Origin: Dehalococcoidia bacterium
Lineage (GTDB): Bacteria > Chloroflexota > Dehalococcoidia > Lucifugimonadales > GCA-2717565
Length of the DNA: 56,815 bases
NCBI GenBank assembly: GCA_009692865.1
Contig: SHYH01000003.1
Coordinates: forward strand, 1 to 56,815
Direction: 5' to 3'
The translations under genes were made by a program, and so were the position numbers. Each line of letters opens with the position of its first letter. Within the stretch, counting starts at the first letter, position 1. Shown one piece after another: positions 10,901-13,950 of the stretch. The notes under the pieces are model-generated. The model was not told the DNA's origin. It did not search any database and saw only the letters and a program-made list of their open reading frames with translations.

Positions 10901-11929
10901 TCACAGCAGCCTGGTCGGGGGGTTCTCCTTCCCCTTGATGTAGGGTATCCCCAGGTGCTCGTAGGCCCGGCGAGTGGCGACCCGCCCGCGAGGGGTGCGG
11001 TCCAGGAAGCCTAGTTGCAACAAATAGGGCTCGTACACGTCCATCACCGTGTCCGCCTCCTCGCTGATGGAGGCGGCAATGGTCTCCAGGCCCACAGGCC
11101 CGCCGTCGAACTTCTCGATGATAGACCTCAGCACCTTGTAGTCCACCCCGTCCAGACCCAGGGCGTCCACCTCCAGGCGGGCCAGGGCCTCCAGGGCCAC
11201 CTCCCGCGTGATAGCGCCATCGGCCACCACCTGAGCATAGTCACGCACCCGCTTCAGCAGCCTGTTGGCCACCCGGGGCGTGCCTCGGGACCGGATGGCG
11301 ATCTCCCTGATCCCGTCAGTGTCCGCCTCAATGCCCAGAATGCGGGCAGAGCGCAGCAGGATGGCCTCCAGGGCCGCGTGGTCGTAGAAGTCCAAGCGCT
11401 CCACAGCCCCGAACCGGTCCCGCAGGGGCGGGCTCACCATGGCGAAGCGGGTGGTGGCGCCGATGAGGGTGAAGGGTGGAATGCGTAGGTTGATGCTGCG
11501 GGCTGCCATGCCCTTCCCGACCACCCAGGAGAGGGAGAAGTCCTCCATAGCCGAGTAGAGGACCTCCTCCACCACGCGGCTCAGGCGATGCACCTCGTCA
11601 ATGAAGAGGATGTCCTCCCGCTGAAGGTTGCTAAGAATTGCCGCCATGTCGCCTGCGCGCTCGATGGCGGGGCCCGAGGTAACGCGCAGGCTGACCCCCA
11701 TCTCGGCGGCAATGATCATGGCCAGGGTGGTCTTGCCCAGGCCAGGCGGGCCGTAGAGAAGCAGATGGTCCAAGGGCTCGCCCCGCATCTTAGCGGCCTG
11801 GATGGCGATGCCCAGATTAGCCTTGATGCGCGCCTGGCCCTGGTACTCGACCAGGCGCCGGGGGCGCAGGCTGGTGTCCAGGGAGAGGTCATCTTCGGTG
11901 GGATTGCTGGAGACCAGGCGGTTTGCCAC
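10901..11929 (-). CDS. ruvB: Holliday junction branch migration helicase RuvB
   Basis: [35 protein letters not shown]. Confidence 0.98.
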
Positions 11930-12001
11930 GGCGGACGTCCTACAAGTCAGGCTGGCCCCATTCTAGCGGGGAGTCGCACAAGTGTTCAAGCCCCTCGTGC
12001 A

Positions 12002-12026
12002 GGCCTCTGTGGGCAGTACTCGAACC
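12002..12026 (-). repeat. Degenerate tRNA 3'-end fragment (att-like)
   Basis: GGCCTCTGTGG(GCAGT)ACTCGAACC matches 13100-13121 with a 5-nt insertion. Confidence 0.6.
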
Positions 12027-12053
12027 TTCTGTGGCCTGATCTCGTGCCCAGGC

Positions 12054-13064
12054 TCAGGAAACTATTGGTCTGCCCGTAGGTGGCCGTGGGTCGAAGCCCA
12101 GATAACGGACGGCGAACTCCAAATTGGCTGGGCCTATTCTCCCGAGGCAGTCGGTGGCGCAATCTCTAGGTACTACCAACCCCTCGCCATACAGGTACCT
12201 TGTGGCGTCGCAGATCACCACATGCCTAGCGAATGAGATCTTTGCCGATGAGAAGTCGCTGCGGCGTCTTCCGCCGTCCTCTCGATCTAGCCTGCGCTCT
12301 ACCCTCAACAGAACGCTAGGAGACAAGGGCACGAAGTAGGTAAGAGAGGCGAAAGCGGCCCCTTCCCACCACGGGCGAACTGGATTCAAGTAACCTGCCA
12401 CTGGATTGTCTGAGGTGTACAGCGGTATCGAATCTGGTGCGAGGCCTATGCGCCAGGGCGCAACCCGTAGTAGATTGGCGAACCCCTGCACCTCACTCAG
12501 CATGAACGTGGCGGTCTCAGCTGGCTGTTGTGGCTCTGATTCGTTGAACCACCAGTGATCGGGCTTGCTCTTCATCTCGTCCCAGATGGCCTCAGCCTCC
12601 TCCTTACTGTGCTGATGATAGACCTGATCTCTAACCATGTCCTTGATTTGTGGAAACATGGATATGACAATGCTCTCATGCCGGTCTCGGAACGCAGGGA
12701 TGCAGAAGCTAACGGCGACAATGAACCTGGCGATGTAGAACTCTTCATCGACGAACAGAGACGTGATGCTGTCAGGGTCGTGGATCAGCTTTCCCATGAC
12801 AGGTGCAGCCTGTCCTTCAAGCTTAGCGAGCCAGTCTTCTGTGGACAAGCGAACACCTTCAAGAACGACATCGTTGAAGCGGGTCTCTAACCCAACATTC
12901 ACGGTTGACGTTCTGTACTCGTTACCGCCATTTTCGAGATCAACCACCCGAATCTTCCCGTCTACACCTGTGAACGCACGCAGTAGCACCTGAGGCACAT
13001 AGTGCTGGCGCTTCACCTCTGTCGGGCTTAGGTTCGGTTCGTTCCAAAACTTGCGGGTGGTCAC
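12054..13064 (-). CDS. DUF4238-like protein
   Basis: N-terminal RQHYVPQ..L..F, E..LAKLE, TSDNPV and F.PLSP motifs; visibly lower GC than flanks. Confidence 0.8.
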   Translation of the reverse strand: MTTRKFWNEPNLSPTEVKRQHYVPQVLLRAFTGVDGKIRVVDLENGGNEYRTSTVNVGLETRFNDVVLEGVRLSTEDWLAKLEGQAAPVMGKLIHDPDSITSLFVDEEFYIARFIVAVSFCIPAFRDRHESIVISMFPQIKDMVRDQVYHQHSKEEAEAIWDEMKSKPDHWWFNESEPQQPAETATFMLSEVQGFANLLRVAPWRIGLAPDSIPLYTSDNPVAGYLNPVRPWWEGAAFASLTYFVPLSPSVLLRVERRLDREDGGRRRSDFSSAKISFARHVVICDATRYLYGEGLVVPRDCATDCLGRIGPANLEFAVRYLGFDPRPPTGRPIVS

Positions 13065-13096
13065 TTATCGACTCTGCGCTAAGACTATTGTGTACC

Positions 13097-13122
13097 TGGT
13101 GGGCCTCTGTGGACTCGAACCA
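13097..13122 (-). repeat. tRNA 3'-end fragment (T-arm, acceptor strand, CCA); att-like
   Basis: Minus strand TGGTTCGAGTCCACAGAGGCCCACCA with no 5' tRNA half upstream. Confidence 0.8.
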
Positions 13123-13152
13123 GGGGGGCCAACGGGTTAGATGCTGGCCGGT

Positions 13153-13371
13153 CTACAGCTCCTCCCACGTCTTCCTGTCGATGCCTGCCTGTCGCAGAAT
13201 CCGGACAAGCAGGTCAAGGCTAATGTCACCCTGATGAGAACCAGGAAGGCGAAGCCTGATCACACCCTTGATCATGAACTGGTGCCTGCCACCGATGTAC
13301 GGCCCCGAGAACCCTGCCAGCCGCAGACAGCGGATGAGATCGCCACGCCCAATCGGGCGAAAGCGCGGCAT
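13153..13371 (-). CDS. hicA: HicA-family toxin
   Basis: 72 aa, L..AGF...GGRH.FM.K....P..H..DI...L..ILRQAGI. Confidence 0.9.
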   Translation of the reverse strand: MPRFRPIGRGDLIRCLRLAGFSGPYIGGRHQFMIKGVIRLRLPGSHQGDISLDLLVRILRQAGIDRKTWEEL

Positions 13372-13613
13372 CAGGAGACGAGCTTGACGCTAAGGTCCAT
13401 GCCATCAACCACCGGAAGCGGGAGATCCCTGGAGATGCTCAATAACACCCATCCTTCTAAAACCTCCCGAAGCTCCTCACGGCAGGCCTCGAGTGTCACG
13501 CCTGTGGCATACACGCCAGGGACGTCGGGGATCTCGCCATAATAGGTGCGATCTTCAGGCAGAATCTCGTAGGCGGCACGGCCCATCAATGCCTGGATGT
13601 ATTCAGTAAGCAC
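13371..13613 (-). CDS. hicB: HicB-family antitoxin (short, no DNA-binding domain)
   Basis: YYGEIPDVPGVYATG.TLE.CREEL.EVLEGW; 1-nt overlap with hicA. Confidence 0.9.
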   Translation of the reverse strand: MLTEYIQALMGRAAYEILPEDRTYYGEIPDVPGVYATGVTLEACREELREVLEGWVLLSISRDLPLPVVDGMDLSVKLVS

Positions 13614-13687
13614 GGTTCACCTTCCTATGGGCCAGGGGTACCACTAACGCCTCTGCTCAAGGGACTCCCTCTCACCACTCTACACTT

Positions 13688-13763
13688 TGGTGGGCCGTCA
13701 GGGACTCGAACCCTGGACACCCGGATTAAAAGCCCAATGCTCTACCAACTGAGCTAACAACTC
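13688..13763 (-). tRNA. tRNA-Lys(UUU) with weak acceptor and anticodon stems
   Basis: 76 nt GAGTTGTTAGCTCAGTTGGTAGAGCATTGGGCTTTTAATCCGGGTGTCCAGGGTTCGAGTCCCTGACGGCCCACCA; canonical D- and T-arms, CCA encoded. Confidence 0.85.
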
Positions 13764-13774
13764 GCCGTGCCTGC

Positions 13775-13803
13775 ATGGTAGCAGAGGGTATGGACAGATA
13801 CAA
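13775..13803 (-). promoter_or_regulatory. Sigma70-like promoter of the tRNA
   Basis: TTGTAT-17 nt-TACCAT about 12 nt upstream of tRNA 5' end. Confidence 0.6.
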
Positions 13804-13804
13804 G

Positions 13805-13950
13805 GACGCCGCTTTCTAGGGCCAGGCCATCTGAGAGGTATCCCACACGGGTTCAGGGGGTTCGAGCGGACTTGCAGGTTGAAACCTTCGGGGGACACCG
13901 CCGCCTAAAGGGGGTGGCATGATGCCCCCGCCTTCAGGCGGGGGTGGGAG
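13805..13950. mobile_element. IS200/IS605-type end remnant (non-autonomous)
   Basis: Hairpin CCCCCGCCTTCAGGCGGGGG and related ACCGCCGCCTAAAGGGGGTGG resemble IS200/IS605 subterminal hairpins; no transposase. Confidence 0.5.

Follow-up and report, generated by a model that had tools for sequence, protein, structure and literature searches.

The window analysed here is a stretch of 56,815 nucleotides (nt) from a Dehalococcoidia bacterium of the phylum Chloroflexota (contig SHYH01000003.1 of assembly GCA_009692865.1), and our subject is a 1.8-kb block lying between ruvB and a divergently transcribed methylmalonyl-CoA mutase gene, in which a gene for a DUF4238 protein is bracketed by two short sites resembling the ends of transfer RNAs (tRNAs), designated f1 and f2. 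Read on the minus strand from high to low coordinates, the block runs from a promoter-like stretch through a tRNA-Lys(UUU) gene, a HicB-like gene and a HicA-like gene, whose start overlaps the stop of the hicB-like gene by 1 nt, to f1; beyond f1 come the DUF4238 gene, f2, a promoter-like site and ruvB. The individual features are the following:

13775..13805, minus strand: promoter-like stretch (TTGTAT ... TACCAT), recognized by similarity to the region upstream of the canonical tRNA-Lys gene; putative function.
13688..13763, minus strand: tRNA-Lys(UUU) paralogue (ARAGORN; Rfam tRNA model, 54.7 bits, gathering score 29).
13371..13613, minus strand: HicB-like (UPF0150) antitoxin-type gene, 80 amino acids (aa) (Pfam PF21748, 98.1 bits).
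13153..13371, minus strand: HicA-like toxin-type gene, 72 aa (Pfam PF07927, 26.7 bits, cut-off 27).
13075..13122, no strand assigned: f1, candidate attR-like site with a short (attB-type) half, the T-loop-to-CCA tRNA mimic at 13098-13121.
12054..13064, minus strand: DUF4238 gene, 336 aa, cargo of the putative mini-element (Pfam, 95 bits).
11984..12079, no strand assigned: f2, candidate attL-like site with a conserved module, member of a dispersed repeat.
11984-12001: left half of f2, short, with a GTTCAA motif.
12002-12025: right half of f2, long (attP-type), spacing 14 nt.
Remainder of f2, plus strand: distal module of ~50 nt, with a mini-ORF (open reading frame) ending at TAG 12077-12079.
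11960..11989, minus strand: promoter-like site of ruvB (TTGAAC-18-TAGAAT), its -35 hexamer coinciding with the outer motif of f2's left half.
10901..11929, minus strand: ruvB, flanking host gene (Pfam), divergent from the mutase gene (start ~14064, plus strand).

An earlier note on this DNA had named the tRNA-Lys, hicB-hicA, the two fragments, the DUF4238 gene and ruvB, all of which were recovered in place, and had set a promoter ahead of the tRNA. That promoter was not called by a generic consensus scan of 13775-13805, but the ~30 nt concerned are conserved upstream of the other tRNA-Lys(UUU) gene of this genome. No integrase gene was found in the tRNA-ruvB interval, no recombinase gene stands beside an att site in the window, and a scan for terminator-like sites returned none in the interval.

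The two sites share a gapped pattern, GGTTCGAGT-N(0-5)-CCACAGAGGCC, which has two minus-strand matches in the window, at 13102-13121 and 12002-12026, and had 0 in 100 shuffles of it. The site f1 is a 25-nt T-loop-to-CCA-like tRNA end at 13097-13122, and f2 (12002-12026) is a second copy in which 5 extra bases separate the two motifs, hereafter the long form. As the earlier note had seen, both differ from the 3' end of the resident tRNA-Lys; the difference covers 5 consecutive bases. Its description of the fragments as tRNA-Ile-like is reasonable: among the 15 places at which the f1-type 20-mer occurs in 301 genomes of the same order, the sole real tRNA is a tRNA-Ile(GAU), whose genome has no long copies. 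None of the 47 tRNAs found in this incomplete genome has the f1 3' end, and no such tRNA was found in the repeat-rich genomes. A genome-wide scan for T-loop-like motifs outside tRNAs gave 79 matches at ≤1 mismatch, mostly chance, the only informative ones being the sites on contigs C19, C30 and C50 of this genome and those in the window, together with three tRNA ends truncated at the edge of a contig.

The length difference between the two forms follows the geometry described for serine integrases. GGTGGGCC and TCGAAC are 9 nt apart in f1, in the two tRNA-Lys genes of this genome and in two further sites on contigs C19 and C55 (below), versus 14 nt in f2 and the other long copies, and on the opposite arm the corresponding spacings are 9 (short) and 15 nt (long). 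Rutherford et al. (2013, PMC3783163) report for serine integrases that the zinc-ribbon motif is set closer to the centre in attB than in attP, by 5 bp, and that the length of attB sites is ~10 bp below that of attP; an outer-motif shift of ~5 bp, as between attP-type and attB-type half-sites, is present here (9 versus 14 nt). Because this shift matches the rule given there, the long form would be the element-type (P) half-site and the short, tRNA-like form the host-type (B) half-site. In its layout f2 resembles a hybrid site, with a short GTTCAA arm joined to a long arm, and its GTTCAA motif doubles as the ruvB -35 box. Since the 5-bp difference between long and short forms is accompanied by the same geometry at a real tRNA beside the relic of a large serine recombinase (LSR), we place the DUF4238 gene between an attL-like f2 and an attR-like f1, and consider that the three together are probably a relic LSR mini-element from which the recombinase has gone. 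By the same site layout, the HicB-like/HicA pair and the tRNA paralogue are outside this putative mini-element.

The connection to LSRs comes from a related genome (G142), in which an intact 540-aa LSR (Resolvase, Recombinase and Zn-ribbon domains) encoded on a 7.5-kb contig ends inside the repeat to which f2 belongs; this recombinase-end site is a dyad, with inverted TGTCCA/TGGACA about the GG of GGTGGGCC and a span of ~48 bp. Within the genome under study, contig C55 (12576-13406) carries the C-terminal half of an LSR gene, 34% identical over residues 293-535 and with an in-frame stop, whose end overlaps a complete, convergent tRNA-Met(CAT) (13284-13357, complement). The junction there has a 24-nt arm, then GG, then an 18-nt arm that ends in TCGAAC, and the catalytic half of this relic was not found. 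On contig C19 (50317-50350), directly 3' of the stop codon of a panC-like gene, a solo attR-type site joins a clear LSR-end remnant to a short tRNA-like arm, and no partner was found on its contig. Homologues of the G142 LSR, at ~50% identity, are present in 136 of the 301 genomes, often in many copies. Of 30 loci, 4 have a full tRNA (Ala, Asp, Glu, Ile) overlapped by the end of the LSR gene and 5 further ones a reverse T-loop motif near the LSR stop, a count in which the longest-ORF shortcut may have taken the wrong strand in some of the other loci. Judged by these overlaps, the G142-type LSRs are a predicted tRNA-end-targeting recombinase family. Up to 60 first-look LSR candidates were seen in one genome, a large expansion for genomes of 2-5 Mb. 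Beside the intact LSR, a 298-aa ORF (L103:6543-7439, G142:C60) has weak PADLOC matches to metallopeptidase regulators of the CapP/RmrA type and is possibly an ImmA/IrrE-like switch of the element.

The repeat is dispersed both in this genome and across the order. Further copies of the f2 type, including the 5 extra bases, lie on contigs C42 and C50, with a weaker one on C30. A search with a degenerate 24-mer (≤2 mismatches) was positive in 13 of the 301 genomes, with 0 matches for a reversed control, and a profile search found the repeat in 28 of the 301, the maximum being 14 copies in one genome and the present genome having 4, the profile having been built from 23 of 29 copies (six were left out as truncated or indel-bearing). 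The conserved unit is ~75 nt long, and a permissive Rfam scan of 20 repeat loci placed no family on it. In the flanks of the 29 long copies, 6 resemble ~25 nt of the LSR gene end (the last codons), 17 have a T-loop-like GTTCGA at -18 to -20, and 6 have neither. The distal module reads as a mini-ORF of 25-35 aa with a conserved stop position (in the window copy, from 12002 to the TAG at 12079), and in this frame synonymous differences are in modest excess (40/100 versus 0.30 expected, p ~0.017, with 5 of the 29 copies left out of the test as indel-bearing). Three copies keep only the distal module, behind another core. The mini-ORF starts on the predicted crossover region, and its frame differs from that of the recombinase tail read through the same DNA. 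At four loci (L094:9331-9600, on G039:C22, and L041, L160 and L163), two att-like sites ~90 nt apart form a larger conserved unit, and the ~100 nt to the left of its second site recur at 89-98% identity on three G116 contigs; at L101:3766-3994 (G056:C39), two long-type copies stand head to head, 83 nt apart, at a contig end.

The surroundings of ruvB in relatives bear on how the block arrived. The comparison took in the ruvB loci of 29 genomes from this order, only one being of the same family. In 11 of the 29, ruvB has a methylmalonyl-CoA mutase gene as its divergent neighbour, and in 7 of these 11, the same-family genome included, the gap between the two genes is ~50-260 bp, as against ~2.1 kb in the window; in the same-family genome gyrA, too, still adjoins ruvB, as in the window. 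No tRNA lies within 1.5 kb of ruvB in 28 of the 29 relatives. Judged from this gene order, the 1.8-kb block in its entirety was inserted between ruvB and the mutase gene, and the tRNA-Lys would therefore be no old integration target at this locus. The remaining four relatives have gaps of 0.75-1.3 kb that hold an SRPBCC-type gene, an esterase, a methyltransferase and one unassigned ORF, and no att-like sites were found in these gaps. As all four hold ordinary single genes and no such sites, the ruvB-mutase interval is not a general cassette hot spot in these relatives.

The tRNA-Lys itself has a counterpart in this genome (G000), a second tRNA-Lys(UUU) on contig C9 (4888-4963) with a perfect acceptor stem. 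In an alignment of the two, the last 31 nt are identical, and the ~30 nt upstream (13775-13805) are conserved. The 5' acceptor strand of the window copy has diverged (one A:C mismatch and two G:U pairs), as has its anticodon stem, and its Rfam tRNA score is 54.7 bits versus 72.8 for the C9 copy. The anticodon-stem changes are wobble-compensated, as though structural constraint persisted. From these comparisons, the window tRNA-Lys is a paralogue of the canonical gene that appears to have come in with its own promoter, and not the ancestral target. The earlier note had taken the resident tRNA as the anchor of the array, a role that it loses on two counts: it belongs to the inserted block, and the repeated sequence is not that of its 3' end.

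These observations suggest the following history, in which acquired DNA would have lodged between the divergent ruvB and methylmalonyl-CoA mutase promoters. The upstream unit (tRNA-Lys paralogue, promoter and hicB-hicA) would most likely be the remnant of an earlier tRNA-end-associated insertion, which would have brought an attB-like site along. A circular, attP-bearing element would have recombined with an attB-like, tRNA-mimicking site overlapping the ruvB -35 box, with the GG in GGTGGGCC as the predicted crossover point. Insertion into such a short-short site would yield f2, composed of a host half and a long half, and f1, composed of a degenerate LSR-end flank and a short half. The LSR gene, which normally abuts the attR side, would later have been lost, or the unit may always have been non-autonomous; either way, the window instance is most likely a relic. 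The order of the insertion events is one that we infer, as would be any co-transcription from the tRNA promoter and any present-day mobility. Because the recombinase gene is gone and the genome holds only relics, the cassette would be fixed, or movable only by an LSR acting in trans, and the earlier note had anticipated both a recombinase acting in trans and one that was lost.

Several points weigh against this history. Classical LSRs are not known to recombine attP with hybrid sites, and the order of site types in the arrays of relatives does not fit a single, simple round of attP x attB. An intact LSR adjoins only 1 of the roughly 100 repeat copies seen, the assembly (82.7% complete) yielded no intact serine recombinase (0 matches for PF07508 and PF00239), and no long-type partner was found within 40 kb for an independent LSR/tRNA-Asp pair. 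The short arm of f1 is present, but on inspection its element-side arm only weakly matches the LSR-end consensus. The ~50 nt past the long arm are conserved as the core is, and their coding-like substitutions are unexplained by an att function. No empty-site or circle form has been demonstrated, the one joint of the right topology having 2 extra letters and lying in a foreign contig (below), and the relatives compared at ruvB are of family and order level only, which gives no timing for the insertion.

For the DUF4238 protein of the window, the PADLOC model DUF4238-Pers gave a weak match (19 bits); a single DUF4238 protein from an E. coli P2 hotspot was reported to protect E. coli against T7 (Rousset et al. 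2022, PMC9122126). Homologues 65% identical to the window protein are encoded in a Deltaproteobacteria and a Chloroflexi metagenome-assembled genome (MAG), and horizontal spread is suggested by the presence of so similar a copy in the former. In the Chloroflexi MAG (contig VGNX01000037.1, L150, 537-1779), the homologue lies ~170 nt behind a co-oriented tRNA-Met(CAT). The flanks of DUF4238 homologues at three loci contain no repeat, and one of these loci, the one behind a tRNA-Met, has an unrelated T-loop-like piece downstream. In the neighbouring unit, the HicB-like protein scores 98.1 bits with UPF0150 and HicA falls just under the Pfam cut-off (26.7 against 27 bits), and the antitoxin-like gene comes first. 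HicB-like homologues are present in 57 of the 301 genomes. A HicA-like ORF adjoins the HicB homologue in 13 of 19 loci of relatives. At one of the 19 (G107) the homologue lies directly behind the 3' end of a tRNA-Met(CAT), co-oriented, and at one other it is divergent; no repeat was found near the HicB homologues that flank tRNAs in these 19 loci. The G107 locus hints that HicB/HicA-type pairs may also travel with tRNA-end elements.

Elsewhere in the order, co-oriented repeat pairs 0.6-1.1 kb apart enclose ParE/Phd, a helix-turn-helix gene with DUF4160, a GIY-YIG nuclease and an alpha/beta hydrolase, and three more cassettes from the same survey hold ORFs without a Pfam match. Counting the window, the small cassettes are of toxin-antitoxin, nuclease or defence type in 4 of 8. 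Single repeat copies stand beside genes for Shedu SduA, SIR2, reverse transcriptase, HNH, HEPN, MazF and FRG proteins, and beside VapBC in this genome. Among 237 ORFs flanking repeat copies, none has the PF00589 tyrosine-recombinase domain, and 3, at two loci, have serine-recombinase domains; a second scan of flanking ORFs covered 128 of 186 called ORFs, leaving out duplicates of loci scanned before and the weakest-hit loci L083-L092.

The closest known systems are the ssrA islands of Dehalococcoides, with their recombinase DsiB, and SCCmec and pseudo-SCC elements (SCC, staphylococcal cassette chromosome). SCC elements are LSR-driven cassettes, among which units without ccr are flanked by repeated integration sites, stacked, and thought to be movable in trans. 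What SCCmec and pseudo-SCC (CcrAB, CcrC, rlmH) share with the units described here is this arrangement of stacked, LSR-driven units thought movable in trans; unlike them, SCC has one protein-gene target, elements of tens of kb and no tRNA mimicry, in an unrelated phylum and with unrelated sites. The ssrA islands are described as tandem and bounded by 20-bp repeats of the end of the transfer-messenger RNA (tmRNA) gene, with the 540-residue DsiB beside one boundary, and the authors proposed recombinase-less, cis-mobilizable units and drew the analogy with SCCmec (McMurdie et al. 2011, PMC3146451). Going by that description, the likeness extends to the same bacterial class, a serine recombinase of ~540 residues beside one att boundary, a structured-RNA 3'-end target, and tandem units with short direct repeats, some of them recombinase-less. 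The islands target the single ssrA, whereas here tRNA-type T-arm/acceptor ends and their mimics are used at many loci; they measure ~10-30 kb, as against 0.5-1.1 kb and one or two genes here, and their six-gene integration module was not seen. The tmRNA gene of this genome lies on contig C42, and the repeats do not copy its 3' end. With the serine integrases of phages (A118/LI, Bxb1, phiC31), the sites have in common a dyad about a central dinucleotide, an attP ~10 bp longer and a 5-bp shift of the outer motif, here 9 versus 14 and 9 versus 15 nt (PMC3783163). Those integrases serve whole prophages at one attB, in contrast to the multi-copy sites, T-loop-mimicking arms and minimal elements of the present case. 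The literature that we searched gave no description of tRNA-mimicking LSR micro-cassettes in Dehalococcoidia, which does not show that there is none in print.

Taken beyond the window, a relic LSR mini-element could be one part of a larger system. We offer as a tentative possibility, with the balance of our judgement against it, that uncultured Dehalococcoidia have an LSR counterpart of the integron, in which micro-cassettes with one or two toxin-antitoxin or defence genes would each bring a portable module of ~75-120 nt, made up of a T-arm-mimicking att site and the conserved mini-ORF, and would be inserted, stacked and exchanged by an LSR encoded elsewhere, at tRNA ends and at palindromic tRNA-mimicking pads dispersed over the chromosome; the window would then, no less tentatively, be one cassette caught at a promoter. 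The likeness to integrons consists of short, promoter-less, co-oriented cassettes between recombination sites, with cargo rich in toxin-antitoxin genes. Integrons use the tyrosine recombinase IntI and attC sites conserved in fold, whereas the recombinase here is of the serine class, the arrays have 2-4 sites, and the sites are conserved in sequence, the repeat copies, unlike attC, sharing a 24-mer with ≤2 mismatches across families. On inspection, the outer motifs GTTCGA...TCGAAC are in the opposite order to the attC cores RYYYAAC...GTTRRRY. An IntI gene with an attI/Pc platform was not seen, with 0 of the 237 flanking ORFs matching PF00589.

A stronger form, which we judge unlikely, would have an active integron-like platform operate today: an LSR encoded elsewhere would stack and shuffle the att-module cassettes at tRNA-mimicking pads, and the cargo would be expressed by read-through. 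This would account for the arrays, present at several loci in at least 7 genomes, in which 2-4 sites are co-oriented, for the "empty" short-short palindromic sites at three loci, and for cargo that is mostly co-oriented with the tRNA-like direction, in the window without an intervening terminator-like site. McMurdie et al. (2011, PMC3146451) also describe LSRs of the CcrAB type as acting on several site pairings. Public sequencing runs, examined as assembled contigs, gave two further indications. In the best-matching run (X1), contigs stop at 12935 and resume at 13151, either side of f1, a break that could reflect strain variation or be induced by the repeat; in a groundwater run of another study (X5), one contig has 13114 followed by 12014, with 2 extra letters between them, a joint that may have circle or tandem topology, may equally be a foreign repeat copy, and is a lead only. 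Against such a platform, the arrays are short, this genome is without an intact LSR, and some of the larger inter-site segments, at one locus (L093), hold ordinary housekeeping-type genes. Neither a presence/absence polymorphism nor a circle has been shown: a genus-level comparison of cassette presence (G039 versus G086, G116 and G142) gave no answer, because the flanks are ~75% identical and not syntenic.

Classical eroded tRNA islands, in which tyrosine integrases left repeats of tRNA 3' ends and later deletions removed the integrases and most of the cargo, are in our view an improbable source of the block. The order is the textbook one, tRNA, cargo, fragment, cargo, fragment, all co-oriented; the association with tRNA 3' ends and the tRNA-end-like direct repeats are what such islands and the present units have in common; a broken tyrosine-integrase gene stands beside other tRNAs on contig C3; and a DUF4238 homologue lies behind the tRNA-Met of the Chloroflexi MAG. 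The fragments, however, are no copies of the end of the neighbouring tRNA-Lys, from which they differ at the 5 consecutive bases, and the tRNA-Lys is itself part of the insertion. The 5-nt insertion of f2 is common to all long copies in 13 genomes and makes a difference of length class, the repeat runs on into the LSR gene end, and no tyrosine integrase is nearby, PF00589 being absent from all 237 flanking ORFs and the four matches in this genome all lying on other contigs. A view that we hold very improbable takes the conserved module first of all for a small gene encoding a 25-35-aa peptide, or for a regulatory element such as a hairpin 3' of the cargo, carried along with toxin-antitoxin or defence genes and only secondarily like tRNA and LSR ends: the conserved stop position, the synonymous excess and the three copies with only the distal module speak for it, but no Rfam family matches, the synonymous statistics are modest, the LSR-end flank, the 9/14-nt geometry and the tRNA-adjacent LSR relic would go unexplained, and both functions may coexist.

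Set against the preferred reading of a relic LSR mini-element, the proposals of the earlier note divide along similar lines. Its view of the fragments as att-like sites agrees with the repeat family, the link to the LSR gene end and the 5-bp geometry, and minimal toxin-antitoxin or defence cassettes, as it had imagined them, are bracketed by the same sites in short co-oriented arrays of related genomes. The phrase "heavily eroded islands" comes close to the truth for this genome, where only recombinase relics were found. Simple tRNA duplications by tyrosine integrases give way to sites of LSR type with a 5-bp long/short shift, and the literal comparison with integrons fails on the absence of PF00589 and on sites conserved in sequence, unlike attC. 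The integron-like idea is thus right in spirit, with att-bounded minimal cassettes and a recombinase elsewhere, and wrong in mechanism and in the role given to the tRNA.

For the window itself, the lesson is that tRNA-like fragments differing in length by 5 bp point to scars of serine recombinases and not to decayed tRNA duplications, and that the "resident" tRNA was itself imported. The usual observation with LSRs is of a whole prophage or a large island being moved into a single site. Should this family be active, these enzymes would run a cassette economy of single defence or toxin-antitoxin genes by way of docking sites that imitate tRNA ends. Were this true, a poorly studied phylum would supply natural attP/attB pairs whose half-site rules can be read, and there would be a second enzymatic route, beside integrons, to the modular exchange of defence genes.

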